64,000 nt of DNA from an uncultured Caldisericales bacterium (lineage in GTDB: Bacteria > Caldisericota > Caldisericia > JAAYUI01), in contig CAZTGD010000001.1 of assembly GCA_964613055.1 (NCBI GenBank), positions 6,977 through 70,976 of the forward strand. The letters run 5' to 3'. This document shows positions 13,559-47,759 of this stretch, one piece after another. The notes under the pieces are model-generated. The model was not told the origin of the DNA. It did no database searches and saw only the letters and a program-made list of their open reading frames with translations. The position numbers and the translations under genes were made by a program. Within the stretch, counting starts at the first letter, position 1, and each line of letters opens with the position of its first letter.

Positions 13559-13571
13559 ATTGTCTTCTCCT

Positions 13572-14938: not shown

Positions 14939-15025
14939 GCCGAAGTGGCGGAATTGGTAGACGCGCATGGTTCAGGTCCATGTCCAGGCAACTGGGTGGG
15001 GGTTCAAGTCCCTTCTTCGGCACCA
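14939..15025 (+). tRNA. tRNA-Leu (anticodon CAG), long variable arm, encoded CCA
   Basis: Manual fold. Acceptor GCCGAAG/CTTCGGC. Anticodon stem CATGG/CCATG with loop TTCAGGT. Variable stem CCAG/CTGG. 3' terminal ACCA. Confidence 0.85.
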
Positions 15026-15067
15026 CTGTTTCTTAGAACCCATACAAATATCAGCTGTATTGATAAT

Positions 15068-17257
15068 ATGAGGTTATCATCTCTTGTTCTTGTTGTGACC
15101 GCTATTGTGACTACGTCTGTCGTGTCTTCATCATTAATTGCTGTTGACGATTACAGAAAAGCTCCCGCTCCACCTTTTTCTTTGACATCAAAAGTGGATA
15201 TTGAAGCTGGATATCTTTCAAAATATCCACCAGTCTCGTTTAGGGATGGGTATATTTTTGGTGACTCCAAAGGGAGACTGCAGTACATAGTTGGTGACAG
15301 TTGCTGGATGAGTGTCTCTGTTGATGGTTCAGATATCAAGTCAGCACCAATTCTGGATGGGGATATCGTATTAGTTGGTACAATGGCAGGTACGTTGGCA
15401 AGTATTCATATGCCATCTGGAGAGTTGCGATGGGCGTTCAAAGCGAAGAATGCAATTATTGGAAGACCTCTTGTAGCAGAGGATAATGTTTATTTTGGCA
15501 GTGCTGATGAGAGATTCTATTGCCTCAACTTAGAAGATGGTTCAAAAGTATTTGAATATCAAACCAATGCTCCGATATGGAGTACTCCTTGTGTTGTGGG
15601 TGATAGTGTGATTTTTGGGTGTGATGATGATTCAGTTTATTGTATCAACAGGTTTGATGGAGAGCTAATTTGGGTGTTCAAGTGCGATGGCTGGGTGGAG
15701 GCAGAACCTGTAGTTGATGATATTTTTATATACATAGGTACTTTGGGTGGGAGTGTGTATAAAATAGATATCTTAACAGGTGAATTGGAATGGAAAATAC
15801 AACTTAATGATGCAGTTCATTCAAAGGGTGTGCAGATAGATAACAGGTATTTTACCGCTGATGACTCGGGATCGATAACATGTTTGGATACTTTCAACGG
15901 AGAAATTATCTGGCAGAGAACAGACTACTCCGCAATTGATACGCCTTTAGAGACAAATGGGGAGTTGATCTATTTTACCGACGAAAACAAGAGGTTTGTT
16001 TGTTTGGATGTGTTTGGTGATCAACTCTGGAGAAGGAATATGATTCATGCGGTTCGGAGTGGTGTTTTGGTGGATGAGTACACTCTTGTTATGGTGAGTT
16101 CAGATGGATTTCTTGAATGTTGGGATGAATGTGGTTATGTAGAGGTTACACCAAAGAACCGTTATCTGGGAGAGGTTGCTGAGGAGGATGGTTTTTTTTC
16201 ATTCAGGATGGATATTGTATCAGGTAGAAAGGATGATCGAGCTTCCCAGGGGATGATCGATTATAGACCTTTTGAAGCGGGGAAAAGGTGCAAAGCAGTT
16301 CAATTCAAGGAGTTGGGAATATCCTATATCAAGAATTTGCGGGTATTCAGCTATGAAGGAAACATAGATCTTTCAGATCCGTCCTTCTGTGATGGATCGA
16401 ACGATTTCGTTGTATATTTTGGTATCGGTCAACCGTTAAGCGAGGGTGATGGGATTTACCAGTCTCCCAGCTCAGATGGAATGGTTCACACTCGGTTTAC
16501 CTTTGATTTGGTTAGTGACAGGTCAGATTGTCAGACATGCGAGCCATGTTATAAAGTCAGCATAACGCCCAATAATACACCCTATTTCAAACGAAATGAG
16601 TCTGGGAGTTTTGAGATACAAGTTTCGTCTGCAGACGATATCAACAGGGAGATAGAGATTAATATAGAGGGCATAAAGGGAATCGAAAGTGAGGAACTCA
16701 AACTGATGCAGGAAGATGGTTTAGTGTCTCACCAAATTGAGTTCGATTGCATGGATCTGCCTGGAGGTTCGTATTTTCAGATACCGATCAGTATATCGTG
16801 TGTGACCTGCCCCAGACCAAATGAGAAAATGAGGTCTGATTGGCATTCAAACAGAACGATCAGTTTCACAACAGACCCCAGGCTGAGGATAGATATGAAA
16901 CCTGATTCGGTGGATGTGTTGGTCAACGGTAATCCAGTAAGACTCGATGTGCCAGCCAGGATAGTTGATGGCAGAACTCTTGTGCCTATAAGATTTGTAG
17001 CCGAAACGTTTGGTTGTGATGTATCTTGGGAGCAGGAAACAAAGAAGGTAACTATAATTAAAGATGAAACTGTTCTCAATTACTGGGCGTATCAAAAGAG
17101 AGCCAGATTCAATGGACTTGATGTGGAAATCGATGTTGGTCCCATAATCGAAAGGGGACGAACACTCGTTCCCTTTCGCTCAGTTGCCGAATCACTTGGA
17201 GCTTATGTACGGTGGATAGCTACATCAAGAGATATAATAATTGATTGGGAGTTTTAG
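15068..17257 (+). CDS. Secreted PQQ-like beta-propeller repeat protein with two C-terminal copper-amine-oxidase-N-like (stalk) domains
   Basis: The table ORF (14945) starts inside the tRNA. ATG 15068 gives signal peptide MRLSSLVLVVTAIVTTSVVSS. Repeated propeller motifs (DG..W, YF.TADDSG). C-terminal RTLVPIRFVAETFGCDVSWE and RTLVPFRSVAESLGAYVRW. Confidence 0.7.
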   Translation: MRLSSLVLVVTAIVTTSVVSSSLIAVDDYRKAPAPPFSLTSKVDIEAGYLSKYPPVSFRDGYIFGDSKGRLQYIVGDSCWMSVSVDGSDIKSAPILDGDIVLVGTMAGTLASIHMPSGELRWAFKAKNAIIGRPLVAEDNVYFGSADERFYCLNLEDGSKVFEYQTNAPIWSTPCVVGDSVIFGCDDDSVYCINRFDGELIWVFKCDGWVEAEPVVDDIFIYIGTLGGSVYKIDILTGELEWKIQLNDAVHSKGVQIDNRYFTADDSGSITCLDTFNGEIIWQRTDYSAIDTPLETNGELIYFTDENKRFVCLDVFGDQLWRRNMIHAVRSGVLVDEYTLVMVSSDGFLECWDECGYVEVTPKNRYLGEVAEEDGFFSFRMDIVSGRKDDRASQGMIDYRPFEAGKRCKAVQFKELGISYIKNLRVFSYEGNIDLSDPSFCDGSNDFVVYFGIGQPLSEGDGIYQSPSSDGMVHTRFTFDLVSDRSDCQTCEPCYKVSITPNNTPYFKRNESGSFEIQVSSADDINREIEINIEGIKGIESEELKLMQEDGLVSHQIEFDCMDLPGGSYFQIPISISCVTCPRPNEKMRSDWHSNRTISFTTDPRLRIDMKPDSVDVLVNGNPVRLDVPARIVDGRTLVPIRFVAETFGCDVSWEQETKKVTIIKDETVLNYWAYQKRARFNGLDVEIDVGPIIERGRTLVPFRSVAESLGAYVRWIATSRDIIIDWEF

Positions 17258-18837
17258 TTTTCGCTGACAGTTTCCCTTGCAAAGCATGCATCAATATGCT
17301 CTTGTGGCAGTTTATTAGTGTATTTGGAAACAACAAAAAGGGTGATGATTGAGAACAAAAGACCAACAAAACCTGGCTCAATGAAATTCAATGGGTGAAT
17401 GTTTGTTAGTGATTTAATGCCAAGTGTTCCACCGTTAAAAATGAATGTCCACAGAAGCGAAACAGCCAATCCCACTATCATTGAGCTAACGGCACCCGCT
17501 TTGGTTGCACCTCTCCAGAACAGCGCTCCGATGGTTGGAGCGAGGAATGTCCCCGCCGCTATGGCGAAGAAAAAGGCGGTGCATTTGGCAATCATACCAG
17601 CTGGAAGGATGAATATACCGAGTATGAATGTTAGTATTATTGATACTGCAATACCTACTCTTTTCCACAACAGAGTATTTTTAGTTTTTCTATTTTTTGC
17701 GATGTTATCTTCGTAAACGTCCTTTCCAATGGAGGTGCCAATCGTGTGGAACTGTGCAGATGATGTCGATATGCCTGCTGATATGAGAGTCAACAGGAAA
17801 ACATAAACAAACCATTTAGGCATGTATGTGGTTATTAGCTGTGGTATTACCTGGTCTACGTTCGAACCTACAATACCCATAGAGGTTTTCCCAAAGTCAT
17901 TAAAAAATGCTACATTGGATAATGATCCAGCTATATATGCACCACCAACGACGATGAGGATAAAGACAGCCCCAACAGCCATCGCCCTGGTCAGATCTCT
18001 ATTGCTTTTAACGGTCATGAAACGAACTAGTAGTTGAGGTTGAGATAAAACACCAACACCGATACCCATCATCAGTGTAGAGATGGTCAGCCACCAGAAT
18101 TGAGAGTTGAATACGGGGAAGGATGTCCATCCAGTGTGTCCTGCCTGTGCCAGCTTATCAGTTATGAGGTGGGACATCGAAGTCAACTGACTGTGAGCTG
18201 ATGTTATTCCACCAAGTTTTATATAGATAAATACTAAGATTCCAATCATACTCACCAGCATTATCGAACCCAGCAGGGAATCTGAATACACAACACCTTT
18301 GAGTCCTCCGGTGATAACGTATACAGCCACAATGATAATGTATATCAGTGCAAGCCAGGCAATGTCAATTCCAAACACTGGTACCATGAACTCAGCTGCA
18401 CCTTTCATCACTGCCGCGGCGTACAGAGGCATGAATATAAAGATGACAAGACCTGAGAACCATTGGGCGAAACTTGAACCAAACCTTTTCCCCAGAAACT
18501 CTGAAAATGTCTGTGATTTCAGATTTTTACCCATCTGTCTCATTCGCTTGCCAAACACCATGTAGGCAATCAGTATACCAATGGCAATGTTGAGGAAAAC
18601 GACCCACATCAGTGAGAACCCGAGTTTACCAGCAAGTCCGCCAAAGCCTATGATTGCAGATGTTGATATGAAAGCGGCACCATATGACAGCGCCATCATA
18701 TATGGATTTACAGAGCCTCCAGCCAGTAGATAGTCCTTTGTCGAGGATGTTCTTTTGTATCCCAGCCAAGCGAGGAAACCGAGTATCAGCAAGAATCCAA
18801 TCAGAATGGGTAAGAAAATTTTGACATCAACTAACAC
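17254..18837 (-). CDS. Sodium:solute symporter family (SSF) transporter
   Basis: About 13 predicted TM helices; SSF-like sequence. Probable GTG start at 18837 with AGGAGG 5 nt upstream, immediately after the stop of the upstream mini-ORF. The table start is 18870. Confidence 0.75.
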   Translation of the reverse strand: MLVDVKIFLPILIGFLLILGFLAWLGYKRTSSTKDYLLAGGSVNPYMMALSYGAAFISTSAIIGFGGLAGKLGFSLMWVVFLNIAIGILIAYMVFGKRMRQMGKNLKSQTFSEFLGKRFGSSFAQWFSGLVIFIFMPLYAAAVMKGAAEFMVPVFGIDIAWLALIYIIIVAVYVITGGLKGVVYSDSLLGSIMLVSMIGILVFIYIKLGGITSAHSQLTSMSHLITDKLAQAGHTGWTSFPVFNSQFWWLTISTLMMGIGVGVLSQPQLLVRFMTVKSNRDLTRAMAVGAVFILIVVGGAYIAGSLSNVAFFNDFGKTSMGIVGSNVDQVIPQLITTYMPKWFVYVFLLTLISAGISTSSAQFHTIGTSIGKDVYEDNIAKNRKTKNTLLWKRVGIAVSIILTFILGIFILPAGMIAKCTAFFFAIAAGTFLAPTIGALFWRGATKAGAVSSMIVGLAVSLLWTFIFNGGTLGIKSLTNIHPLNFIEPGFVGLLFSIITLFVVSKYTNKLPQEHIDACFARETVSEN

Positions 18838-19006: not shown

Positions 19007-19684
19007 TTATCGATTGTCAGTTTTTACTTGTTCTAGTTTATTCTCTATCCAATCAAACCAGGCATGAAGACCATCTCCCGATTTGATGGAGAAAGAGATG
19101 ATGTCCAGTTTTGAGTTCACTTTTAGGGCATCCTGCTTGAAGTCATCAATGTTGAAGTCACAGTATGGAATAAGGTCCAGCTTGTTGATTAGAACGCAGT
19201 CTGAAACCCTGAATGCTAGAGGATACTTTGCTGGTTTGTCGTCACCCTCGGGAACTGAGAAAAGGAGAATCTTTGAGTGTTCACCTAGTTCATATGCCGC
19301 AGGGCAAACGAGGTTTCCAACGTTTTCAATGAATATAATATCAAGATTATCGAGGGGAAGCCCCTCGATTGCCTCTTTAACCTGCGATGCTGTAAGGTGA
19401 CAGGAAGAACCAGTACCGGCTGTGTTAATGAGGGATACTGGGACATGCATCTTTTCGAGTCTTCTTGCATCCCTGTTGGTTTCGGGATCGCCCTCTACCA
19501 CTGCGAGAAGGTAGTCATTTTTAAACCTGGAGAGTGTTTTCTCAAGTAGAGATGTTTTCCCAGAGCCTGGAGAGCTGATCATATTCAGGGCAAGTATCCC
19601 TTTTGAATCAAATGTTTTCCTCAAATAATCTGCTATCTTCTCTGTCTTAAAATCAACTTTCTTCTTTATATCAATCTCCATCAT
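19007..19684 (-). CDS. hypB: Hydrogenase/urease nickel-incorporation GTPase HypB
   Basis: ISSPGSGKTSLLEKT (P-loop) and ENVGNLVCPAAYELGE are HypB signatures. Start refined to ATG 19684 (GGAGG RBS). The table ORF extends into hypA. Confidence 0.85.
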   Translation of the reverse strand: MMEIDIKKKVDFKTEKIADYLRKTFDSKGILALNMISSPGSGKTSLLEKTLSRFKNDYLLAVVEGDPETNRDARRLEKMHVPVSLINTAGTGSSCHLTASQVKEAIEGLPLDNLDIIFIENVGNLVCPAAYELGEHSKILLFSVPEGDDKPAKYPLAFRVSDCVLINKLDLIPYCDFNIDDFKQDALKVNSKLDIISFSIKSGDGLHAWFDWIENKLEQVKTDNR

Positions 19685-20024
19685 CAACCTCCATATGTAT
19701 TTTTTCAACAATGAGGTCTCTACCTGAGACCATTTTGCAATCGCCACTTCCACACTCAGGGCATGTAAAATCGTAACCCTCTGCACTGAAACTATTTCCA
19801 CAGTTTGAACAAACGAGTTCTGGGTCAACCAGTTTAAATTCGATCTTCATCCCACTACATACAGAATCTTGTGAGATCGTTTCCAGCAAGAACACAAGAG
19901 AATCAGGCATGATTCCAGACATACGCCCGATGATGAGTTTTACGCCCTTAACGGTAGCGTGCCTCGACTCAGCCTCGCTTTTGAGAAGATCAAAGACCTG
20001 GTTTGCTATCCCAAGTTCGTGCAT
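19671..20024 (-). CDS. hypA: Hydrogenase nickel-insertion metallochaperone HypA
   Basis: MHELGIANQV... N-terminus with zinc knuckle CSNCG...CPECG. Overlaps the hypB start. Confidence 0.85.
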   Translation of the reverse strand: MHELGIANQVFDLLKSEAESRHATVKGVKLIIGRMSGIMPDSLVFLLETISQDSVCSGMKIEFKLVDPELVCSNCGNSFSAEGYDFTCPECGSGDCKMVSGRDLIVEKIHMEVDDGD

Positions 20025-20104
20025 GATTAGCATGTTAACACACCTGTCAGATAATACAGTGAATTAAACATTAGAACTTGACGGTGATAAAGATACAAAC
20101 TTAA

Positions 20105-22271: not shown

Positions 22272-25200
22272 TTATTTATAAGGCAGTTTTGAAAGTTCAT
22301 TGACAAGCTTCACCGTTTCTAGTGAGACGGTTACCACCTTGCCAATGAGGTCAAATATATACCTTTCATTGCCGTCAAAGTTGTTTGGGTCTTGTTTTAT
22401 TCCTGACCTTTTATCTGTTTTGACCCTGTATTGGTCAACAATCCATTCTAAAGCAGAGCGGTTACCCAGCTTGTATTCATAGACTTCTGGTGGGATGCCT
22501 GCAAGTGTTATTGCTTTGTTGTAGACAAGTGATTTCTTATCCTTTGTAATTTTCATCTTGTCTACGGTGAACTTTACATCTGGGAATCTATCTTTATCAA
22601 TAACCTCTTCAAGCTCATATATGTCGGCGTTTTCATAGTCCAGGTGAATATCAGCGAGTCTTTTGCCAATCGAACTGAAGCTCCAGAAGTCTGGTGCAAA
22701 GGGTATTCTTGGTAATGATCCTTTCAGGTTCTTCTCATAGTCCTTGCGGTAATCCTTGTGGTGTAGCATTGCATAGATGTAGTAGAAGATGTCCCATTTG
22801 GTTATTTGCTCCGCTTCACAGGGAGGGTGGACAGGAGTATCATTTAAACCCCCCTGATTTGACTTCGTCAAATCTTCCCCCCTCGAAGAGGGGGGCTTAT
22901 TGTGTGCTTCGTCGGTTCCACTCGAAGAGGGGGGCTTAGTGTCTTTGTAGTGGTTGTGGAACAGTTTCAGGGTGTGGTCGGTAATGTTTTCACGTCTTCC
23001 TGTGCCGTCCTTGTTGTAGGTGTAGAAGGGGAAGCATTGTGAATCACCTGTAAAATGTAAATCAGGTATGGTCTTCGATATTAATGACTGGAATGGTTTC
23101 TTGTTTCCAACCGCTGTTGTGCATATCACCCTGTTCTCTTCCTCGGATGCGGATGTTGGAAAGAAACGATGTTGTTGGTATCTTCTTTGATTCAATAGAT
23201 GATCAAAATATAGATTCACTCGACAATAAGGTCTATAAATACTTTTTCTAAAACCGTTCTCTGATAACCTAATTTGAATATTTTTCTTGAGAGATTCTTT
23301 TAGTCTAACCGTCCACTTTATCTTGCTCTCATCATTTGATAAAATCTTTTCTAATTCAATATCACCAATTTGTCTGTGTGGTTGCTTCTCTAATTTTATT
23401 CTTTCAGTTTCATATGTTGAATAATGCAACATAAGATTTGTTTTTAATTCTTGTTGTGAGAAATTGTATACCCATATATCTCTACCTGTTGCAACTCCTC
23501 TTGAGTAAAGATTGAAGATGGTATCGCAGTCCGGTTTGCCCTTCTTGCGCTTGTCACCCATCAGGGGGTAATCCTCAAAGTCCTCCGCCATACCCTCAGT
23601 CAACCACAGGTGACGCTTGCTGGGTGTCAGTTTCTTCCAGTTGACTCCTTTTAAATCACCCGCCTTGTATACAATTTCAAACTTTTCAATCCTTGTAGAT
23701 CTGAAAGGTACGTCAAAGTACCAGATTCCCTTTTCTTTTGATGCTTTGTTCTTTATGAAGAATGAAATGGATATACCAACCATTGCTGACAGACCAAACA
23801 CTGTATGCTTTTCACCCAATGGTATACCATCTCTCATTGAGTCTTTCCGTATGTTACCCTTTAGATCCAACACATACAGCTTATCAAAATCCTTCTCCAG
23901 GTGCTTTCTCATCCCGTCAAAAGCGTATCCATCGATGAAGCTGTTGTTGGTGATCATGGCAATAACACCCTCATCACCGATTCTCTCTGATGCCCACTTG
24001 ATGGCTTTTACATATGGATCATAAATTGCATTCTTTTTTGTCGCTCTTGAGTCTTTCCCAAAGGTATTTCCGATAGCCTCCTCTAATTTGGGATATTTCC
24101 TGTTTTTATTATTATCCATCTCATTCTGCTGATTTGAGTTGTATGGAGGGTTACAAATGACAACAAAGATTGGTGATTCTGACTGTTTTATGACTCTCTG
24201 TGCGTTCTCATCATTGAAGTACAGACCACCGTGTTCTTCAAACATCTGAAAGGTGTCGGCAAAGCAGATGCCTGGGAAGGGCTCTCTTTCACCCATAGCA
24301 TCGTAGTATGCGTGCTCTATGTTGATGTTTGCTATGTAGTATGGCATCAGCTGTATCTCATTACAGTGAAGCTCCTCAAGGTATTTTTGTTTTAGTCTGG
24401 TAGGGTTAATCTTCTCTATCACGTTTACTATGAAGTTTCCTGTTCCCACAAAAGGATCAATAATGTGGACTTGTTCACTACCTAGACCCTGCTTCTTGTC
24501 AAACTCTGTCTTGAGTATCTCGTCTACTGACCTGACCATGAAGTTAACCACAGGTTGTGGTGTGTAGACTATTCCAAGTCTGTCTGCTGATTTTATTGCC
24601 CAGCCTTGAAAGAAACGCTCAAAGATATCGTTTAGGAAGACCTGTTTTGCTTTGAAATCCTCCAGCTTATATGCCGCTTTCACTATCTGATCGTAGAAAT
24701 GGTCAAGAGAGCCTAAGAACTCTGTTTTGTTGAAGTAACCTTTGGTCATTGAATCGATTACGCTTTCAATGTTCTTTGCTATTATGTTTCGACTTGTAAA
24801 GCTCTTAAGGTCAAATATGCTCTCCAGTATCCTCTCCGTAAGCAGGTGCTGTACAATCATCTCTTTGATTGCGACACGGCTCACATTGGGATTGATTGAT
24901 TTTGTGCAAAGTTTATAGAACTCATCAAATCTTTTTATGAAAAGCTCGTTTGTTTGTTGTGATTCCTCAATCTTTTCAAGCAGACCCTTGGCGAGTATTG
25001 GCATACGTTCATCAAAGGTGTCAATAGCCTCTTCCCATGTTTTCCTGTCAAAATGTTCATAGTTGAAGAACTTTTCAAGTACCTTGATGAAACTCTCTGG
25101 GTTGTCTGCTATATCTTCATCATAGACCTTTTTCTTTCGCTGTATTAGAACAGCACGCTTTGGTTGCCAGAAGAGTATATTGAAATCTGGATAGTCTTTT

Positions 25201-25559
25201 GTGAGAATCTTTTTTTCTATCTCTTCATCCAGGTCATCATCGTCATCCTTTGATTCCATATACCCCATGGGGAGAATGCCTACTTTTGATTCTAGAAAAC
25301 TGCCATCAGGGATGTTGCCGTTTGGTAGAGATTTCTTCGGTTCAAAGTTCCATTCAACTTGCTTTGAACAGTATGAAAGTAGGTTTAGGAAGATTGGCTC
25401 TACTACACCTTCAGATGGATTGTTGTTTGTACGAGTCTGAAAATATATCTCATACTGCCTCTTCATATCCCTGTAGTACTGCTCAATGGGTTTGTCAGAA
25501 GGTTTTAGGCTGAGTTTGCTCTGTTCATTCATACAACCACTCCCATTTATAGTTTTCAA
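22272..25559 (-). CDS. Type IIG (MmeI-like) restriction-modification enzyme: N-terminal PD-ExK-like nuclease + gamma-class N6-adenine DNA methyltransferase + target-recognition/C-terminal domain (alternative: BREX PglX-like MTase)
   Basis: Candidate nuclease motif IPDGSF...VGILPMGYMESK (PD...ExK), resembling the D..ExK catalytic motif recalled from MmeI (not verifiable here). MTase motif I IIDPFVGTGNFIVNV. Motif IV VVICNPPYNS. C-terminal FYYIYAMLHHKDYRKDYEKNLKGSLPRIPF matches the MmeI/PglX-type C-domain. No BREX partner genes nearby. Confidence 0.65.
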   Translation of the reverse strand: MKTINGSGCMNEQSKLSLKPSDKPIEQYYRDMKRQYEIYFQTRTNNNPSEGVVEPIFLNLLSYCSKQVEWNFEPKKSLPNGNIPDGSFLESKVGILPMGYMESKDDDDDLDEEIEKKILTKDYPDFNILFWQPKRAVLIQRKKKVYDEDIADNPESFIKVLEKFFNYEHFDRKTWEEAIDTFDERMPILAKGLLEKIEESQQTNELFIKRFDEFYKLCTKSINPNVSRVAIKEMIVQHLLTERILESIFDLKSFTSRNIIAKNIESVIDSMTKGYFNKTEFLGSLDHFYDQIVKAAYKLEDFKAKQVFLNDIFERFFQGWAIKSADRLGIVYTPQPVVNFMVRSVDEILKTEFDKKQGLGSEQVHIIDPFVGTGNFIVNVIEKINPTRLKQKYLEELHCNEIQLMPYYIANINIEHAYYDAMGEREPFPGICFADTFQMFEEHGGLYFNDENAQRVIKQSESPIFVVICNPPYNSNQQNEMDNNKNRKYPKLEEAIGNTFGKDSRATKKNAIYDPYVKAIKWASERIGDEGVIAMITNNSFIDGYAFDGMRKHLEKDFDKLYVLDLKGNIRKDSMRDGIPLGEKHTVFGLSAMVGISISFFIKNKASKEKGIWYFDVPFRSTRIEKFEIVYKAGDLKGVNWKKLTPSKRHLWLTEGMAEDFEDYPLMGDKRKKGKPDCDTIFNLYSRGVATGRDIWVYNFSQQELKTNLMLHYSTYETERIKLEKQPHRQIGDIELEKILSNDESKIKWTVRLKESLKKNIQIRLSENGFRKSIYRPYCRVNLYFDHLLNQRRYQQHRFFPTSASEEENRVICTTAVGNKKPFQSLISKTIPDLHFTGDSQCFPFYTYNKDGTGRRENITDHTLKLFHNHYKDTKPPSSSGTDEAHNKPPSSRGEDLTKSNQGGLNDTPVHPPCEAEQITKWDIFYYIYAMLHHKDYRKDYEKNLKGSLPRIPFAPDFWSFSSIGKRLADIHLDYENADIYELEEVIDKDRFPDVKFTVDKMKITKDKKSLVYNKAITLAGIPPEVYEYKLGNRSALEWIVDQYRVKTDKRSGIKQDPNNFDGNERYIFDLIGKVVTVSLETVKLVNELSKLPYK
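22842..22934. repeat. GC-rich structured in-frame insertion inside the R-M gene: 17-bp direct repeat (CTCGAAGAGGGGGGCTT x2), four C6/G6 homopolymer tracts, nested hairpins
   Basis: CCCCCC-TGATTTGAC-TTC-GTCAAATC-TTCCCCCC-TCGAAGA-GGGGGG ... TCGAAGA-GGGGGG. Much higher GC than the surrounding roughly 30% GC gene. Encodes the Pro/Ser/Gly linker KPPSSSGTDEAHNKPPSSRGEDLTKSNQGG. Confidence 0.5.
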
Positions 25560-26658: not shown

Positions 26659-29145
26659 GTGCGACACTTTTTAGACACGCCGTTACTAATACGCTTCACG
26701 GGGTGCTTGCTGTTGGTATGCGCAGTAGGTATTGTGAGTGTTATTGGTGTATTGATACCTAGTAATAGTGCAGAAGCTGTAAATATTACCGATTATTACT
26801 ATTCTGACTTTAAACCCGTCAAGATTGTTGAAAATGATCATATCCAGAATATGCCATCCATTCATGGTAATTATATATCCTGGCTCGATTCAAGGTTAAA
26901 CGATAAGGCAGGTAGGATATTTCCGCGCAACTACATGATGGACATAAGAACGAGAGAAGAGAGGGTTGCAAACTCCTTTGCCAGGAAATCAGGTGCGATG
27001 ACTCAGTACAGGAACAAGATAGTATGGGCTGAAAATACTGACAGATTAAGGGAGAACAACTTCGATATTAAGTGCTACGATTTTAAAAGTGACGAAATTT
27101 CAACCGTGTGTAGCAACAAAACTATGCAATCGAATCCTCAGATATCTGATGATTACATTATATGGAATGATATGAGAGACTCCGATGTTGGTTCTGATGA
27201 TCCATCACAATTTGCTATTTATGGTATCCCCACAGAAGGAGGTGATGAGTTTCTTATAAAGGATCATGAAACACCTGGTATTGCAGAGTTGTTTGGTGAT
27301 TATATTATTTTATCAAAAGAAAATGAGGATAGAGGAGATTATGATGTATACCTTTTAATTCCGTCAAGTTCAAAAAGTATACCCATATGTACAGCTAAAG
27401 GAGACCAGTTTAACCCAGCAATAATCAACGATAATTTCGTAGTCTGGGAGGATACTCGAAATGCTCCTGAATTCGGTTTCGACAGACCTGGGGATATCTA
27501 TGGTTATTCGATAAATAATCACAAAGAGATTTTTATATCCATTGATAAAGCCAGAGACTATGGTTTGGTTGTGGGAGAGGAGCGGTACTGCCTTTGGTTC
27601 AGAGAGTCTGGTGATTCTATTGGTGGTTTGGCAAACACAATTCACGGTTATGATACCTTTGCTCAAAAGGAGTTTACAATTTGCGATAAACCAAGCGACA
27701 ATAGAAAGGCGGTTGTTGGAGAGGATTGGATTGTATGGGAAGTGCATACTCATACAGAATTTGGTTCTGACCTGATGGCATACCATATTGAATCAGATAA
27801 AATCTATACCTTATGTAAATCATATGGCGATCAAATGAATCCAAGCATTTATAGGAACCGAGTTGTTTGGGAAAATCACAGCAATTCCAATACAGAAGAA
27901 GTAAGCATCTGGTATGCAGATCTTGACATTCTAGCAAGTAATAAATCACTCAACCAGCAATGGGGGTTTTCTCACCGACCCATTTGGAGTCAATGTCGAG
28001 CAGATGATACTAATAGCGGTATGGGTTTTGCTGAGATTAGGGATCTTGATAGATTTAAAATGAATCAACAATGGAAGACAAAGCTTAATGGTTCAATCAC
28101 ATCTTCAGCATGTTTCGACAGAAGCTGTTTTGCATACTTAGGGACCTCACAGGGAAAGGATGGTTATTTCTACAAAATATCAGCCTATACGGGTGAAATA
28201 ATCTGGGAAAAAGCTGTAGAAGGAGGTGTTAGATCCTCTCCGGCTATATACAATAACCGCGCTTTCTTCGGTACCTCTTCCGGTAAGTTTTATTGCCTCG
28301 AAACCGATTATGGTCAAGAAGTTTGGAGTATACAACTTGATGATGCCATTGACACCTCGCCAACGATTTTTATCAGCGAGGTGGATCATTACCCCATGGT
28401 CATATTCAGCTCTAACAATAAATCATTGTATATGTATAGTGTTAGAGGAAACAAACCAAACAAGCAATGGGAAATTATGCTGGATGGATGGGTAAAAGGA
28501 ACAGTTGCAATCGATTATAATAGATTCTTCAGAGTATCAAGAAGAGAACCAGTAAAAAAGTATATTTATGCTGGATTGTCCAGCAACAGGATTGTGTGTA
28601 TTGATCCGGCAACAGCACAAATAGTCGCATCCTTTCCAACGGACTCTTCAATTAAAACCCCCCCAATCGCAATAGGACCTACTTGTATCGGTACTTCTGG
28701 TGAAGGCACGCTGTATTGTTTTGATTTCTGTGGATTGGGAAGGTCTCCAGAGCTTCACATTGAGGAAAAAACATATCACAGATCAATGTCCTCTCCAGTC
28801 TATGATCGAATCAACCAGATCCTATGTTTTGAAAGCAGTTCAGACTCAATATCATTTATAAATGGGAATAAAAAGTGGACGACTACCATCAGTAAAACTC
28901 TATCTGCTTCACCTTCTCTGTCGATTTCTACACGCAATGATGGTTCATATATGATTATTTCATCGTTTGATGGAAGTCTGTTTATTTTTAACACTGTAAA
29001 TGGTGAAATTCTTTGGAACAAGTCGCTTGAAGCCAGGGTAACGAGTTCACCAAGCATACTGGATACCGGATTTGTCTCGATAATTATAGGTTCAAATGAT
29101 TCTTATCTGTATTGCTGGGGCCAGAGACCCATCTATTCAGATTAA
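26659..29145 (+). CDS. Secreted beta-propeller repeat protein (N-terminal xxVWxDxR-type blades, C-terminal PQQ-like repeats)
   Basis: GTG start. Signal-peptide-like MRHF...LLLVCAVGIVSVIGVLIPSNSAEA. Repeated blade motifs YISWLDSRLND, IVWAENTDRL, YIIWNDMRDSD, FVVWEDTRNAPEF, WIVWEVHTHTEFGSD and RVVWENHSN. C-terminal PQQ-like GGVRSSPAIYNNRAFFGTSSGKFYCLETDYGQEVW. Confidence 0.65.
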   Translation: MRHFLDTPLLIRFTGCLLLVCAVGIVSVIGVLIPSNSAEAVNITDYYYSDFKPVKIVENDHIQNMPSIHGNYISWLDSRLNDKAGRIFPRNYMMDIRTREERVANSFARKSGAMTQYRNKIVWAENTDRLRENNFDIKCYDFKSDEISTVCSNKTMQSNPQISDDYIIWNDMRDSDVGSDDPSQFAIYGIPTEGGDEFLIKDHETPGIAELFGDYIILSKENEDRGDYDVYLLIPSSSKSIPICTAKGDQFNPAIINDNFVVWEDTRNAPEFGFDRPGDIYGYSINNHKEIFISIDKARDYGLVVGEERYCLWFRESGDSIGGLANTIHGYDTFAQKEFTICDKPSDNRKAVVGEDWIVWEVHTHTEFGSDLMAYHIESDKIYTLCKSYGDQMNPSIYRNRVVWENHSNSNTEEVSIWYADLDILASNKSLNQQWGFSHRPIWSQCRADDTNSGMGFAEIRDLDRFKMNQQWKTKLNGSITSSACFDRSCFAYLGTSQGKDGYFYKISAYTGEIIWEKAVEGGVRSSPAIYNNRAFFGTSSGKFYCLETDYGQEVWSIQLDDAIDTSPTIFISEVDHYPMVIFSSNNKSLYMYSVRGNKPNKQWEIMLDGWVKGTVAIDYNRFFRVSRREPVKKYIYAGLSSNRIVCIDPATAQIVASFPTDSSIKTPPIAIGPTCIGTSGEGTLYCFDFCGLGRSPELHIEEKTYHRSMSSPVYDRINQILCFESSSDSISFINGNKKWTTTISKTLSASPSLSISTRNDGSYMIISSFDGSLFIFNTVNGEILWNKSLEARVTSSPSILDTGFVSIIIGSNDSYLYCWGQRPIYSD

Positions 29146-29226
29146 CCTAATAATCCACACCTTTATTGACATAGTAACCATTGATCCTAATCTTATTTTG
29201 AACGTTATTCACTTGGAGGTCTAACT

Positions 29227-29544
29227 ATGTACGCGGTCATGAAAACTGGAGGCAAGCAGTATAAGGTTTGCCCTGAAGACATCATCAAGGTAGAGAAGCT
29301 CGACGTTGAGCCCGGAGATAAACTTGAAATCAAGGAAGTCACTATTTTAGAGAAGGATGGAGAGTTACTTTTCGGAAAACCCTATGTAAATGGAGCATCT
29401 ATTAAAGCCGAGGTTCTAAGGCATGGAAAGAACAGGAAGCAGGTTGTGTTCTTTTACAGACATAAGACTACCTATAAGAGGAAAAAGGGTCATAGACAGA
29501 ATCATACAGAGATTAAGATAAATTCAATACAACTGGAGGCATAA
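29227..29544 (+). CDS. rplU: 50S ribosomal protein L21
   Basis: MYAVMKTGGKQYKV...FFYRHKTTYKRKKGHRQ is the L21 signature. GGAGG RBS. Confidence 0.9.
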   Translation: MYAVMKTGGKQYKVCPEDIIKVEKLDVEPGDKLEIKEVTILEKDGELLFGKPYVNGASIKAEVLRHGKNRKQVVFFYRHKTTYKRKKGHRQNHTEIKINSIQLEA

Positions 29545-30858
29545 ATGGCTAAGAGAAAAGTAATCATCATGGGCGCTGCAGGGCGTGATTTTCACAATTT
29601 CAACACCCTTTACAGGGACAACGAGGATTTTGAGGTAGTTGCTTTTACAGCTACTCAGATCCCAGATATCGCAGGCAGAAAGTATCCGGCAGAACTTGCT
29701 GGTAAACTATATCCAAATGGCATACCAATTTACGATGAGATTGAATTGGTAAAACTAATGGAGGAAAATAAAGTTGATGATGTCGTATTCTCCTACTCGG
29801 ATCAGCCACATCTTGTTGTCATGCACAAATCATCGTTGGTAAACGCTCATGGAGCTAACTTTGTTTTACCCAGCTATCAAGATACTGCACTCAAATCTAC
29901 AAAACCTGTTATCTCAATCTGCGCAGTCAGAACAGGATGCGGTAAGAGCCAGACAACCAGACGTGTTGTTGAGATTCTAAGGCGAATGGGTAAAAAGGTG
30001 GTTTCAATTAGACACCCCATGCCATATGGTGACCTTGCAAAACAGGCCGTTCAGCGTTTTGCTGAGTACTCAGATCTCGACAAGCATGATTGCACCATTG
30101 AGGAAAGAGAAGAGTATGAACCACACATCGACCTTGGAGCTGTTATCTACTCTGGAGTTGATTACGAGAAAATCCTCAGAGAAGCAGAAAAAGAAGCTGA
30201 TGTAATCGTTTGGGATGGCGGTAATAATGATTTCCCATTTATTAAATCCGATATCCCCATTGTTGTTCTTGATCCGCTTCGTCCAGGCCATGAGAGTGCG
30301 TATTATCCAGGGGAATGCAATCTGCATATAGCCAAGATAGGAGTTATTAACAAGATTGACTCAGCCTATCCAGAGGATGTTGATTGCGTGAGAGAGAATG
30401 TCTTCTGCATTAATCCAGAGATGCTCATCATTGATGCGGCATCGCCAGTCTTCCTCGATGACCCATCCAAGATAAGAGGTAAAAAGGTTCTGGTTATTGA
30501 AGATGGTCCAACACTCACTCATGGAGAGATGGAGTATGGTGCAGGATACGTTGCCGCCAAGAAGGCAGGTGCATCTGAGATAATCTCACCCAAACCATAT
30601 GCTGTAGGTTCAATTAAGGACACATTCGAAGCTTATACTCATGTTGAGGATGTCTTACCTGCTATGGGCTATTCACCCGAGCAGATCAAGGATCTGAAGC
30701 AGACAATAGAAGCTGTTCCAGCCGATGTTATTATATCAGGTACCCCCATTGACATAACAAGGGTTCTCAATGTGTCAAAGCCAATACAGCGTGTTCGTTA
30801 TGAACTTGACGAAATAGGTACTCCCAATCTGGAGAAACTTATAAAGGAGATGCTCTAA
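29545..30858 (+). CDS. P-loop NTPase with N-terminal Rossmann-like domain (cyclic 2,3-diphosphoglycerate synthetase-like / DUF1611-like family; function uncertain)
   Basis: KVIIMGAAGRDFHNF N-terminus. Walker A ICAVRTGCGKSQTT. Start ATG abuts the rplU stop (TAAATG). Family assignment is from memory of motif patterns only. Confidence 0.55.
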   Translation: MAKRKVIIMGAAGRDFHNFNTLYRDNEDFEVVAFTATQIPDIAGRKYPAELAGKLYPNGIPIYDEIELVKLMEENKVDDVVFSYSDQPHLVVMHKSSLVNAHGANFVLPSYQDTALKSTKPVISICAVRTGCGKSQTTRRVVEILRRMGKKVVSIRHPMPYGDLAKQAVQRFAEYSDLDKHDCTIEEREEYEPHIDLGAVIYSGVDYEKILREAEKEADVIVWDGGNNDFPFIKSDIPIVVLDPLRPGHESAYYPGECNLHIAKIGVINKIDSAYPEDVDCVRENVFCINPEMLIIDAASPVFLDDPSKIRGKKVLVIEDGPTLTHGEMEYGAGYVAAKKAGASEIISPKPYAVGSIKDTFEAYTHVEDVLPAMGYSPEQIKDLKQTIEAVPADVIISGTPIDITRVLNVSKPIQRVRYELDEIGTPNLEKLIKEML

Positions 30859-31794
30859 GTGGCAGTTAATATGAAAGGACGCTCAATTCTAACGATCCAT
30901 GAGTTGAGCATTGAGGAGGTTGACCAGATATTTGACATGGCTCGGACTCTCAAACTCGAGCGAATGGCTGGGAAAATAATGAATCCTCTGCTTTCAGGGA
31001 AATCTCTGGCTATGATATTTGAAAAGGCTTCAACCAGAACACGTTTGTCATTTGAAGTAGCTATTCACGAACTGGGTGGACATCCCATCTATCTGTCATC
31101 CAAGGACATGCAGATAGGCAGAGGGGAGAGTATCGCAGATACAGCAAGGGTTCTGTCTAGATATGTTCATGGTATTGAAGCGCGTGTATTTGAGCATCAG
31201 AAACTCGTAGATATGGCAGAGTATGGTTCAGTTCCAGTGATAAACGGTCTCTCTGATCTCACTCATCCATGTCAGGTGTTGACTGACCTGTTCACGATCA
31301 GTGAAAAGTTTGGTGAGGTCGGTGGACTGAAAATGGTTTACATGGGTGATGGTTCCAACAACATGGCTCATAGTCTACTTTATGGATGTGCAAAGGTCGG
31401 GATGGACATGACCGTGTGTACTCCAGAGGGGTATGAACCAGATTCAACAGTGCTTGAGAATGCTAAAAAGGATGCTCTGGAAACCGGTGCGGAACTGATC
31501 ATCTCTCATGATCCAAATGAGTCTGTCATTGACGCAGACGTCATATACACTGATGTATGGGCTTCAATGGGTCAGGAAGAAGAATATGCCAAGCGTGTTA
31601 ATAATCTGAAGCCATACCAGGTGAATGCTGATTTGATGAAGAAGTCAGAAGGGGCAATATTTATGCACTGTTTACCTGCCCATCGTGGTGAAGAGGTAAC
31701 GGATGAGGTAGCAGACGCACCGTATTCTGTCATTTTCGATGAAGCAGAGAATCGACTACATGTGCAGAAAGCAATCCTAGCGCTGGTAATGTAG
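30859..31794 (+). CDS. argF: Ornithine carbamoyltransferase
   Basis: STRTRLSFE (carbamoyl-phosphate binding), HPCQ, DVWASMG and HCLPAHRGEE are the full OTC motif set. Confidence 0.88.
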   Translation: MAVNMKGRSILTIHELSIEEVDQIFDMARTLKLERMAGKIMNPLLSGKSLAMIFEKASTRTRLSFEVAIHELGGHPIYLSSKDMQIGRGESIADTARVLSRYVHGIEARVFEHQKLVDMAEYGSVPVINGLSDLTHPCQVLTDLFTISEKFGEVGGLKMVYMGDGSNNMAHSLLYGCAKVGMDMTVCTPEGYEPDSTVLENAKKDALETGAELIISHDPNESVIDADVIYTDVWASMGQEEEYAKRVNNLKPYQVNADLMKKSEGAIFMHCLPAHRGEEVTDEVADAPYSVIFDEAENRLHVQKAILALVM

Positions 31795-31830: not shown

Positions 31831-31866
31831 AAAGCCCCTGGTCTCGACCGGGGGCTTTTTCTTTAT
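31831..31866 (+). terminator. Rho-independent terminator after argF (AAGCCCCTGGTC-TC-GACCGGGGGCTT + TTTTCTTT)
   Basis: 12-bp stem (one mismatch) followed by a T-run, 37 nt after the argF stop. Confidence 0.6.
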
Positions 31867-31893: not shown

Positions 31894-33168
31894 ATGAGAC
31901 CACATAAAATCCAATACATGCGTTTGAGCATAGTGATAGTTGTTGTTATAAGCGTACTTACTTCAGCAGTACCCATATGGGGTAATCCAAATACATGCTT
32001 AGATATTACTACAGATGCTTATGGGAATCTATTCCTTCTCAATCCCGATTCACAGAGGATATTCAAGTTTGACGACAACCTGAACTTTATCGAAGAATCA
32101 CTTAACTCATATTCGATGCAGATGAAATATGCCGATTCAATGACAGTATGCTGGTGTGCTGGAGAGTTATCTTTTTCATCATCTTCAAACGCTTCAACTC
32201 AGATGTATGAGATAGATGAGAAATGGGATTATATTTATCATCGAGACCTTGCAGATATTGGAGATGGAAAAGGTCAAATAACCAAACCAAGTGATGTTAA
32301 GTATCTTCGATCTGAGCAGGATTACTGGATTGCCATTGTTGATAGCGAACTGGGGAAGGTAGTTGTTATAGATGATTTTGGTGAGTTCCACCACGAGATT
32401 GCTGGATTGAAGAATCCAGTATCATCGTATTATTCAACAAGAAAAGAACTCTTTATTATAGACGAATCACAGATCAAGGTATTCTCATCGACTGGTTCAC
32501 TTGTCAGGTCATTTGGTAACAATCATTTGAAAAACCCAACAATCATTGACGCATCACGCAAAGAGGACAGGTTCTTTGTATTGGATGGTAATGATGTAAT
32601 TGTCTTTAACGCTAGCGGTGACATGACAGACACATTTAATGTACCTGATTCTGCTGTTGATCTGTCAGTTAACATATACAAAGACTGGTTGATCGTGGCT
32701 TCATGTGCTAAAAATGGAACATTGTACGCTTATGATTATGATGGAAATCTGGTTAAAACGGTTGAATCGGTTCTGAACCCAAAGAAACAAACCATACTAA
32801 GGTTCAAGGTTGGAAGTTACGTTTATTATATCAACGGAGAAGGTCAGAAACTAAGATGCCCTGTCAGGATTGAGAATAACCGGTCGCTTGTCCCTGTCAG
32901 GGAGATCACTGAATCAATAGGTGGTACGGTGAGTTGGGATTATGCGACCAAAACAATAACAATTGAGTATGGTGGTTCAATTATATGGCTGAAGATAGAC
33001 CATCCATATGCAATTGTAGACGGATTGCCAAAAATACTCCCATCGATGGTACCACCAAGGATTTATTGTGATGGAGTTACTATGGTTCCACTTCGCTTTG
33101 TAAGTGAAATACTGGGTGCTGAAGTGGAATATTTTGAAAAGGATAAAACGATTGAGGTGAGAAAATGA
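31894..33168 (+). CDS. Secreted beta-propeller (NHL/YVTN-like) protein with two C-terminal copper-amine-oxidase-N-like (stalk) domains
   Basis: Signal peptide MRPHKIQYMRLSIVIVVVISVLTSAVPIWG. C-terminal RSLVPVREITESIGGTVSWDYATKTITIEY and VTMVPLRFVSEILGAEVEYFEKDKTIEV. Confidence 0.65.
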   Translation: MRPHKIQYMRLSIVIVVVISVLTSAVPIWGNPNTCLDITTDAYGNLFLLNPDSQRIFKFDDNLNFIEESLNSYSMQMKYADSMTVCWCAGELSFSSSSNASTQMYEIDEKWDYIYHRDLADIGDGKGQITKPSDVKYLRSEQDYWIAIVDSELGKVVVIDDFGEFHHEIAGLKNPVSSYYSTRKELFIIDESQIKVFSSTGSLVRSFGNNHLKNPTIIDASRKEDRFFVLDGNDVIVFNASGDMTDTFNVPDSAVDLSVNIYKDWLIVASCAKNGTLYAYDYDGNLVKTVESVLNPKKQTILRFKVGSYVYYINGEGQKLRCPVRIENNRSLVPVREITESIGGTVSWDYATKTITIEYGGSIIWLKIDHPYAIVDGLPKILPSMVPPRIYCDGVTMVPLRFVSEILGAEVEYFEKDKTIEVRK

Positions 33169-34068: not shown

Positions 34069-34145
<77 letters not shown>

Positions 34146-34152
34146 TTGGTGT

Positions 34153-34226
34153 GTGCCCGTAGCTCAGTTGGATAGAGCATCTGCCTTCTAAGCAGAGGGT
34201 CGGGCGTTCGAGTCGCCCCGGGCACG
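34153..34226 (+). tRNA. tRNA-Arg (anticodon TCT)
   Basis: Acceptor GTGCCCG/CGGGCAC. Anticodon stem TCTGC/GCAGA with loop CTTCTAA. T-loop TTCGAGT. No encoded CCA. Confidence 0.8.
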
Positions 34227-34245
34227 TATATCATTGGCATGGTAT

Positions 34246-34320
34246 GGGCCCATAGCTCAGATGGATAGAGCGGCGGTCTCCTAAACCGCAGGTCGCAGGT
34301 TCGACTCCTGCTGGGCTCAC
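34246..34320 (+). tRNA. tRNA-Arg (anticodon CCT)
   Basis: Acceptor GGGCCCA/TGGGCTC. Anticodon stem GCGGT/ACCGC with loop CTCCTAA. T-loop TTCGACT. Confidence 0.8.
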
Positions 34321-34335
34321 CATCGAAAAGAGGGA

Positions 34336-34410
34336 GCGCCTATAGCTCAACTGGATAGAGCGACGGACTTCGGATCCGTAGGTTGCGGGTTCGACTCCTG
34401 CTGGGCGCGC
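34336..34410 (+). tRNA. tRNA-Arg (anticodon TCG)
   Basis: Acceptor GCGCCTA/TGGGCGC. Anticodon stem ACGGA/TCCGT with loop CTTCGGA. T-loop TTCGACT. Confidence 0.75.
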
Positions 34411-34428
34411 CATTTGTATAGTTGATGT

Positions 34429-34504
34429 GGGTTGCTAGCTCAATTGGTAGAGCATCTGACTCTTAATCAGGCGGTTGGGGGTTCGAGTCCCTTGCAACCC
34501 ACCA
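34429..34504 (+). tRNA. tRNA-Lys (anticodon CTT), encoded CCA
   Basis: Acceptor GGGTTGC/GCAACCC. Anticodon stem TCTGA/TCAGG with loop CTCTTAA. 3' terminal ACCA. Confidence 0.8.
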
Positions 34505-35536: not shown

Positions 35537-35622
35537 GCGAGGGTGGCGGAATTGGTAGACGCGTTGGATTTAGGATCCAGTGAGCTTAGCTCGTGCGGGT
35601 TCAAGTCCCGCCCTTCGTACCA
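35537..35622 (+). tRNA. tRNA-Leu (anticodon TAG), long variable arm, encoded CCA
   Basis: Acceptor GCGAGGG/CCTTCGT (two G-U pairs). Anticodon stem TTGGA/TCCAG with loop TTTAGGA. Variable stem GAGC/GCTC. 3' terminal ACCA. Confidence 0.8.
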
Positions 35623-35640
35623 ACACTATAACTTGTTGAT

Positions 35641-35715
35641 GCGGGAGTAGCTCAGTGGTAGAGCACGACCTTGCCATGGTCGGGGTCGCGGGTTCGAATC
35701 CCGTCTCCCGCTCCA
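35641..35715 (+). tRNA. tRNA-Gly (anticodon GCC), encoded CCA
   Basis: GCGGGAGTAGCTCAGTGGTAGAGCACGACCTTGCCATGGTCG... Anticodon loop TTGCCAT. 3' terminal TCCA. Confidence 0.85.
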
Positions 35716-47545: not shown

Positions 47546-47759
47546 TGTATGAACTCGATCTCAAATAGAACTCGATAGTGCGATCAAAGGTTGCTTCATC
47601 TTTTTTGTTAAAGTAGCATGCAGGTAGCTCCCCAAGAGCTCTGTGATACTCAATACACTCACAACATACACCATGTCTTGGGCAGTTATAAGTGCAGTTG
47701 CACTCGCTGTTTACTTCACCCTTTTTCAGTTTTCTATCTCTTCTTTTACAATTACTCAT
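47538..47759 (-). CDS. Small cysteine-rich protein (8 Cys; C-x-C...CPRHGVCCECIEYH), putative metal-binding
   Basis: 73 aa. Basic N-terminus, then CNCTYNCPRHGVCCECIEYHRALGELPACY. Start and stop overlap both neighbouring genes by 8 nt. Resembles small Cys-rich DUF-type proteins, but the family cannot be confirmed. Confidence 0.5.
   Translation of the reverse strand: MSNCKRRDRKLKKGEVNSECNCTYNCPRHGVCCECIEYHRALGELPACYFNKKDEATFDRTIEFYLRSSSYNG

Follow-up and report, generated by a model that had tools for sequence, protein, structure and literature searches.

The arginine synthetase pathway comprises ArcE, its partner enzyme ornithine carbamoyltransferase (OTC, ArcB), and ArcC (PMC11032458). Michimori, Yokooji, and Atomi (PNAS 2024) identified the product of TK2200 (arcE) from Thermococcus kodakarensis as an arginine synthetase catalyzing the reaction Arg + ADP + Pi <-> Cit + NH3 + ATP, with a Keq of ~10 at 80 degrees C (PMC11032458). 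The enzyme uses free ammonia, shows strict specificity for L-arginine, and prefers ADP, with GDP supporting 8.4% of the ADP rate. Formerly annotated as a hypothetical protein or putative GTPase, it was discovered via the co-occurrence of its gene with that of carbamate kinase (CK, ArcC) in genomes without arginine deiminase; LpxK is its structural neighbor, and its similarity to cyclic 2,3-diphosphoglycerate synthetase (cDPGS) is low. Homologs of arcE are found throughout Thermococcales and have a wide distribution, with Caldisericum named among the bacteria, and in some genomes they cluster with arcB or arcC (PMC11032458). In a 2026 follow-up, ArcE and ArcB were reported to provide carbamoyl phosphate for pyrimidines and for [NiFe]-hydrogenase maturation in T. 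kodakarensis (PMC13260591). Here, we describe a 64-kb stretch of DNA (the window; coordinates count from its first letter) from a metagenome-assembled genome (MAG) of an uncultured Caldisericales bacterium (GCA_964613055.1, contig CAZTGD010000001.1), in which a gene for a 437-amino-acid (aa) P-loop protein lies between the ribosomal protein gene rplU and a gene for OTC. We assign a probability of roughly 0.8 to the reading that this gene is a bacterial ortholog of arcE, forming with OTC the first two steps of the pathway in a tight rplU-arcE-argF unit. The locus consists of three abutting open reading frames (ORFs) and the following associated elements:

29166-29171, plus strand: candidate -35 box (TTGACA) upstream of rplU, read from the sequence
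29227-29544, plus strand: rplU, ribosomal protein bL21, 105 aa (PF00829, TIGR00061)
29545-30858, plus strand: probable arcE, arginine synthetase homolog, 437 aa (by homology, fold, and gene context)
30859-31794, plus strand: argF/arcB, OTC, 311 aa from a GTG start (TIGR00658, PF02729, PF00185)
31831-31866, plus strand: predicted intrinsic terminator closing rplU-arcE-argF, a hairpin with a T-rich tail

Relative to T. kodakarensis, the window encodes a protein that appears to be of the same family (62% identity to Thermococcus orthologs), with the same length, a predicted P-loop/LpxK-like fold, the same weak kinship to cDPGS, and the same OTC partner. It differs in being bacterial, from the MAG of an uncultured member of Caldisericota. 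Moreover, arcE and arcB abut in one probable operon here, whereas the pathway genes of T. kodakarensis are dispersed (TK2200, TK0871, and TK2158); the operon in the window is headed by rplU and has no arcC nearby. The classical arginine deiminase operons, arcABC(D), follow the same logic, converting arginine to citrulline and then to ornithine and carbamoyl phosphate, and likewise place the gene for the first step next to that for OTC. However, their first step is carried out by a hydrolytic deiminase with a guanidino-modifying fold and no gain of ATP, whereas the cluster in the window contains a member of a P-loop enzyme family that conserves energy as ATP, and lacks arcC and arcD. With an ArcE, arginine fermentation would be predicted to yield 2 ATP per arginine instead of 1, and the arginine and carbamoyl-phosphate routes that can be envisaged in uncultured anaerobes such as Caldisericota would change as well.

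Several features support assignment of the 437-aa protein to the ArcE family. Its translation contains KVIIMGAAGRDFHNF at residues 5-19, within an N-terminal Rossmann-like domain, and RTGCGKSQTT at residues 129-138, with the Walker A motif at residues 128-135; a WDGGNND segment occupies the Walker-B position, and an INKID motif spans residues 268-272. Aligned to WP_167913951.1 of Thermococcus sp. 21S9, the protein is 62% identical (81% positives) over 435 aa without a single gap (582 bits). That sequence represents a 90%-identity cluster of 201 sequences from Thermococcus and Palaeococcus, and the comparison is thus with relatives one step removed from the assayed TK2200. The full-length homology to these Thermococcales orthologs argues for membership in the ArcE family.

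This family is large and strongly conserved. More than 8000 matches were scored in a set of 5.8 billion proteins, homologs are present in at least 597 species-level GTDB genomes, and identity remains at 60-70% across bacterial phyla and archaea. The invariant blocks are IMGAAGRDFHNFN, VVAFTATQIP, RTGxGKSQT, IRHPMPYG, CTIEEREEYEPHI, WDGGNND, DPxRxGxE, PGExN, INK, EDGPTLTHG (residues 319-327 of the window protein), and LPAMGY. No model in Pfam-A or NCBIfam release 20 covers the family, and the profile search that had been proposed for the 437-aa protein matched no model of either collection even at E = 10. Public databases name the homologs "predicted GTPase," "GTPase," or "cyclic 2,3-diphosphoglycerate synthase," and the NCBI records labeled cDPG synthase or GTPase (P0036, P0298, P0370, P0393, and others) include Thermococcus and Pyrococcus members. 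This naming, which extends to thousands of proteins, is systematic misannotation, and a family with outdated public names and without a Pfam or NCBIfam model can now be assigned to arginine synthetase.

The original prediction, made from the sequence alone, had recognized the Rossmann-like N terminus and the Walker A motif, both of which are present in the translation. It had also likened the protein to a cDPGS/DUF1611-like group that it called not well understood in bacteria. The latter statement is outdated, as the family was characterized in 2024 as the arginine synthetase ArcE (PMC11032458); a literature search on COG2403 found no paper. The refuting outcome named there, a well-characterized enzyme unrelated to OTC, did not materialize, since the enzyme is characterized and is functionally tied to OTC. 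The proposed arginine- or ornithine-related function holds, with the ArcE family acting on arginine and OTC as its pathway partner.

Structural modeling is consistent with the sequence-based assignment. We compared an AlphaFold2 model of the 437-aa protein (predicted local distance difference test, 87; predicted template modeling score, 0.84) to the PDB using Foldseek. The top match was cDPGS (E = 2e-17, 15% identity, template modeling [TM] score ~0.47), followed by LpxK (4ehx, E = 5e-8) and then by the DUF1611 structures 2g0t and 2obn (TM0796 and Ava_3511), and the resemblance that had been noticed from sequence is in this respect mirrored by the fold. The protein is not itself a member of the DUF1611/DgcN-like family: there is no Pfam match, and the fold matches to 2g0t, 2obn, and 7xrj are weak (TM 0.20-0.23), although the architecture is related. 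HypB is a partial fold match (TM 0.28 on the query), MeaB and signal recognition particle (SRP) GTPases are also weak matches, and CTP synthase and dethiobiotin synthetase appear as distant matches at ranks 17 and 31. In sequence searches of the PDB, the protein retrieved only cDPGS (E = 2.4e-5, ~113 residues, 26.7 bits), which was also found with the family profile at 6e-9. The cDPGS of Methanothermus fervidus (PDB 8ORK/8ORU; also 9SXB) has the same N-terminal alpha/beta and P-loop kinase domains and a length of ~440-460 aa. It nonetheless differs in substrate, taxonomic range, and gene neighborhood, shares only ~15% identity, and has a P-loop, GTGKRVGKT, that aligns with VRTGCGKS. A P-loop core predicted to be LpxK-like, combined with low similarity to cDPGS, is the pattern described for TK2200. 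The sole low-confidence stretch of the model, residues 322-329, falls mostly inside the invariant EDGPTLTHG block, which suggests that this block is a mobile active-site lid.

The partner gene and the wider genomic context point in the same direction. On the strength of its family matches, the third ORF is an OTC (ArgF/ArcB): it scores 426.5 bits against TIGR00658 (cut-off 280.85), matches both PF02729 and PF00185, and stays below the cut-offs of the putrescine, N-acetylornithine, and aspartate carbamoyltransferase and YgeW models. Its translation contains STRTR, HPCQ, DVWASMG, and HCLP, which we take to be OTC family motifs. For the context of arcE in other genomes, we called and clustered ORFs at 80 loci from GTDB species and located neighbors by tblastn; 65 of these loci include at least 2.5 kb downstream of arcE. 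In 20 of the 65, from at least seven phyla, the immediate downstream neighbor on the coding strand of arcE is OTC and/or CK. Pairing of the P-loop gene with OTC and/or CK recurs in other genomes, and the association with arcB and/or arcC known for ArcE is present. Since OTC is the pathway partner of ArcE, the pairing is expected rather than strange; arcE-argF is a standard pathway module and not an odd insertion, and its attachment to rplU is the unusual part.

The arrangements vary by lineage. OTC follows arcE directly in six Caldisericota loci and one Chloroflexota locus, the latter with a class-III aminotransferase gene after the pair. In Melioribacteraceae, Aminicenantes, and Acidobacteriota the order is arcE, CK, OTC, while in Marinimicrobia, Calditrichota, Zixibacteria, and KSB1 it is arcE, CK, sucC-sucD, with ndk added in three loci. 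Four of the arcE-CK-sucCD loci (L050, L055, L056, and L070; not L043 or L068) have a pyrroline-5-carboxylate (P5C) dehydrogenase-like gene directly upstream. The arcE-arcB, arcE-arcC-arcB, and P5C dehydrogenase-arcE-arcC-sucCD arrangements independently support the 2024 pathway assignment in bacteria. As a separate observation, the (P5C dehydrogenase-like)-arcE-arcC-sucC-sucD(-ndk) clusters bring an enzyme of ornithine/proline catabolism together with three steps of substrate-level phosphorylation and contain no OTC. A 529-aa aldehyde dehydrogenase is encoded on the same contig as the window, ~11 kb beyond its left end (positions 16259-17848 of locus L167), and is 35% identical to the P5C dehydrogenase-like genes found ahead of arcE in other phyla. 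Although unlinked to arcE, this enzyme might have a role downstream of ornithine.

By homology, the window protein would use a P-loop, SIMIBI-class, LpxK/cDPGS-like scaffold to interconvert L-arginine + ADP + Pi and L-citrulline + NH3 + ATP reversibly, and OTC would interconvert citrulline + Pi and ornithine + carbamoyl phosphate. The two reactions share citrulline, and the gene pair is arcE-arcB, for the first two steps of the pathway. Arginine synthetase catalysis has been shown only for TK2200 (PMC11032458), and we infer the activity of the 437-aa protein in its Caldisericota host from its sequence. In the direction of arginine, we propose that the ureido oxygen of citrulline would be phosphorylated by ATP, after which ammonia would displace phosphate to form the guanidinium group. 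In reverse, phosphate would attack the guanidinium carbon, ammonia would leave, and the phosphoryl group would pass to ADP, yielding ATP. By analogy, this chemistry may resemble that of the CTP synthase amidoligase domain and of dethiobiotin synthetase, which are distant SIMIBI fold matches with a comparable proposed course, activation of a carbonyl or ureido oxygen by ATP followed by nitrogen attack, although neither is a member of the family and their substrates differ.

The physiological direction could take three forms: arginine fermentation for ATP, in which case arcC would be encoded at another site; provision of ornithine and carbamoyl phosphate, the role described in Thermococcus; or arginine synthesis replacing ArgG/ArgH, a proposal made for a few other bacteria in the ArcE study (PMC11032458). 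A specific version of the last has ArcE and OTC of Caldisericota as biosynthetic enzymes and the sole route from ornithine to arginine, at a cost of one ATP and with free ammonia, the fusion to rplU providing growth-rate-dependent control. We regard this version as rather unlikely.

Several observations weigh against the assignment of the gene pair as arcE-arcB in a complete pathway. No carbamate kinase gene was found in the window or within ~8 kb on either side, and a three-enzyme catabolic pathway is therefore not established for this genome; the same ~8 kb past each window end also contain no rpmA, arcA, argG/H, or carAB. The absence of classical arginine deiminase that goes with ArcE in other genomes is seen over the window and these flanks, out of a genome of about 2 Mb. 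Orthology to the assayed TK2200 is drawn through other Thermococcales sequences, and our literature search found no paper on any bacterial ArcE member, assayed or otherwise. The INK[IV]D motif resembles the NKxD motif that confers guanine specificity on GTPases, whereas TK2200 prefers ADP, and the nucleotide preference of the window protein may therefore differ. The case for co-transcription with rplU, finally, draws on sequence features and includes a weak -10 element.

The rplU gene itself is unambiguous. Its product matches PF00829 over positions 1-99 of 99 (E = 6e-36, 123 bits, cut-off 27) and TIGR00061 at 107 bits (cut-off 43.7), and this full-length match above curated cut-offs identifies it as ribosomal protein bL21. 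The canonical ribosomal operon has the order rplU-(ysxB)-rpmA-obg. In both cases rplU heads a polycistronic unit with its own promoter, a candidate promoter in the window; here, however, arcE-argF replaces rpmA. This gene order and the lack of rpmA had been noted in the original prediction and are confirmed by ORF calls and family matches. A tblastn search of the window with L27 from E. coli and B. subtilis gave a best E of 0.6, and an L27 profile built from 75 sequences matched nothing in the six-frame translation of the window and nine related loci, which excludes an rpmA in an overlooked frame of the window. The background comprised 50 L21 loci from metagenomes, each with 1.5 kb or more of sequence downstream, drawn from listed matches that are all at most 51% identical. 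In all 50, an L27 gene lies within 452 bp of L21 on the same strand; the absence of rpmA here is thus not a chance arrangement. The gene must be encoded elsewhere in the genome.

The junctions indicate tight coupling, as had been anticipated. The arcE ATG abuts the rplU stop codon (TAAATG), and the argF GTG directly follows the arcE stop codon (TAAGTG), with an alternative argF ATG at 30871. Each gene is preceded by a Shine-Dalgarno sequence: GGAGG at 29215-29219, 8 nt before the rplU start; GGAGG, 6 nt before the arcE ATG; and AAGGAG, 10 nt before the argF GTG. Our scan of the coding strand between the three genes found no promoter-like or terminator-like site. The strong terminator predicted after argF is evident as a hairpin at 31831-31858, in which a 12-bp stem containing 7 G-C pairs closes a loop of 4 nt; TTCTTT comes next. 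Upstream, the TTGACA box lies 55 nt 5' of the rplU start; it is kept in the four closest genomes and occupies the same place in L164, L165, and L166. The lone -10 candidate is weak (TAATCT at 29188-29193, 16-nt spacer), owing to which the site did not pass a consensus promoter scan. A search of Rfam around rplU returned no leader or riboswitch, the downstream tRNAs being its sole matches. Since the genes abut, no sites intervene, and the TTGACA box is conserved, co-transcription from a promoter upstream of rplU is likely. The abutment, the Shine-Dalgarno sequences, the single -35 box, and the single terminator together suggest that arcE-argF is probably expressed in step with the ribosomal protein gene ahead of it.

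The order rplU-arcE-argF is shared by at least five related Caldisericota (L004, L082, L164, L165, and L166), one of them represented by a 2.23-Mb contig (L164; ERZ21869602 ctg94808c). In L004, L164, L165, and L166, ArcE is 74-86% identical and the flanking genes are those of the window: a PQQ-like beta-propeller protein upstream and, downstream, a copper-amine-oxidase-N-domain protein, a redoxin, a tRNA cluster, and tig-clpP-clpX-lon. A Caldisericia MAG at greater distance, L082, keeps the gene order alone, with ArcE 63% and L21 47% identical. In L164, L165, and L166, rplU and arcE are spaced by -1 to +5 nt, and the OTC of the relatives is likewise 311 aa, its gene abutting or overlapping arcE. 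Other Caldisericota (L005, L007, L010, and L020) have arcE-argF without rplU. Recent horizontal transfer of arcE-argF was considered and rejected: its GC content is only slightly higher (0.43-0.45 versus 0.38-0.40), and the synteny is old. We conclude that rplU-arcE-argF is an old, stable tricistronic unit in a clade of Caldisericota, with arcE-argF in the place of rpmA. The fusion is best seen as a curiosity of this lineage and not as a novel type of system; it sets a metabolic module in the place of rpmA in one of the most conserved ribosomal gene pairs and offers a testable example of ribosome synthesis coupled to amino-acid or energy metabolism. Under the rather unlikely biosynthetic version given above, it would put the supply of arginine, or of carbamoyl phosphate and ornithine, under control of the ribosomal-protein type, with possible translational coupling to L21.

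A second arrangement also connects arcE to the translation apparatus. In 23 Anaerolineae/Chloroflexota loci (including L006, L011, L012, L014, L025, L033, L036, L041, L063, L072, and L074), arcE is located between the arginyl-tRNA synthetase (ArgRS) gene, directly upstream, and obg. The order in Anaerolineae is rpsT-argS-arcE-obg-nadD, with argS 27-200 nt upstream and obg 18-190 nt downstream of arcE. Because obg normally follows rplU-rpmA, we view this arrangement as a second, independent tie of arcE to the rplU-rpmA-obg neighborhood and to the use of arginine in translation; under the biosynthetic version, it would be a second, independent link to the translation apparatus.

The rplU beside arcE could instead be an extra copy, with a canonical rplU-rpmA pair kept elsewhere and the ribosomal link an artifact of duplication. 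Such a pair would account for the rpmA that must exist somewhere, and our search covered the window and its flanks. We think it unlikely all the same. The L21 of the window is full length with normal family-model scores, and the arrangement is kept in lineages that share just 47% identity in L21. Moreover, among the best 120 relatives of this L21 in the 5.8-billion-protein set, just one (P0422) derives from the closed 2.23-Mb sister contig, and it is encoded in front of arcE, which argues against a spare copy of rplU.

As to the function of the 437-aa protein, it may be a paralog of ArcE that applies the same chemistry to another ureido or guanidino substrate, such as a modified ornithine or citrulline derivative. 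The literature searched contains no assay of a bacterial member, and gene context varies by phylum (CK-sucCD, ArgRS, or OTC only), both of which would suit a shifted substrate. We judge such a shift distinctly improbable given the gapless alignment to Thermococcales ArcE with every conserved block shared, the adjoining carbamoyltransferase that passes the OTC equivalog model and fails those for putrescine, acetylornithine, and YgeW, and the strict specificity of TK2200 for L-arginine (PMC11032458). We attach very little weight to a role as a regulatory or chaperone NTPase, a G3E/CobW-HypB-like "predicted GTPase" assisting OTC or another partner, despite the GTPase name used by JGI and NCBI, the NKxD-like INKID motif, the weak fold matches to HypB, MeaB, and SRP GTPases, and a precomputed PF02492 match in a few homologs. 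The window protein has no PF02492 match at E <= 10 and only partial similarity to HypB, which sets it apart from the G3E GTPases (CobW/HypB/UreG/MeaB), and its Thermococcus relative is a demonstrated ADP-preferring enzyme. Additionally, the family retains ~60-70% identity between bacteria and archaea with dozens of invariant polar residues outside the nucleotide site, as suits a substrate-binding enzyme. Synthesis of the thermoprotectant cDPG is barely credible, even though many NCBI homologs carry that name and cDPGS is the best PDB match by sequence and fold, because both matches are poor (a local alignment of ~113 residues; ~15% identity at TM ~0.47), the 2,3-DPG-binding P-loop residues K145/R146 of cDPGS are replaced by T130/G131, the conserved neighbors are OTC, CK, and ArgRS rather than glycolytic or 2-phosphoglycerate-kinase genes, and cDPG is reported from hyperthermophilic methanogens only (PMC10690619).

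Beyond the arginine synthetase assignment, the surroundings of the unit contain further features. Five tRNA genes lie 2.3 kb downstream of arcE-argF (34069-34504, plus strand), specifying Pro(UGG), Arg(UCU), Arg(CCU), Arg(UCG), and Lys(CUU), with Leu(UAG) and Gly(GCC) at 35537-35715. L004 and L164-L166 keep this cluster, whereas L082, L007, and L020 lack it. We considered a functional link between arcE-argF and the three tRNA-Arg genes; they are syntenic in the closest relatives only, and the proximity probably reflects synteny. A hypB-like gene (CobW/HypB/UreG domain, 273 aa) and hypA are found ~9 kb upstream (19007-20033, minus strand) and are syntenic in relatives. The role of ArcE and ArcB in hydrogenase maturation in Thermococcus touches on this nearness (PMC13260591), which may be coincidental.

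Four large, paralogous-looking secreted proteins are encoded at 10421-13645 (minus), 14945-17257 (plus), 26659-29145 (plus), and 31894-33168 (plus), two of them flanking rplU-arcE-argF. Their architecture joins PQQ-like/BamB-type beta-propellers with Ig-like repeats and, at the C terminus, a copper-amine-oxidase N-terminal domain, and they are probably cell-envelope proteins of the lineage. The first, a 1074-aa ORF, had been a candidate for carB by its length and is in fact a surface-type repeat protein. A 1095-aa single-polypeptide Type ISP restriction-modification enzyme (N6_Mtase, ISP coupler, and Type_ISP_C by precomputed Pfam) is encoded at 22272-25559 (minus), with an unannotated ORF of 174 aa after it; L164-L166 do not have the enzyme at this place. 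At 1671-5183 (minus), next to rpsF-ssb-rpsR-rplI, a 1170-aa protein joins an N-terminal Ser/Thr protein kinase to an AAA_16 (STAND-like) ATPase. Lastly, a gene for a 413-aa protein in which a dual-specificity/PTP-like phosphatase domain is fused to two MazG nucleotide pyrophosphohydrolase domains (47752-48993, minus) adjoins the gene for the transcription-repair coupling factor (48975-52466).

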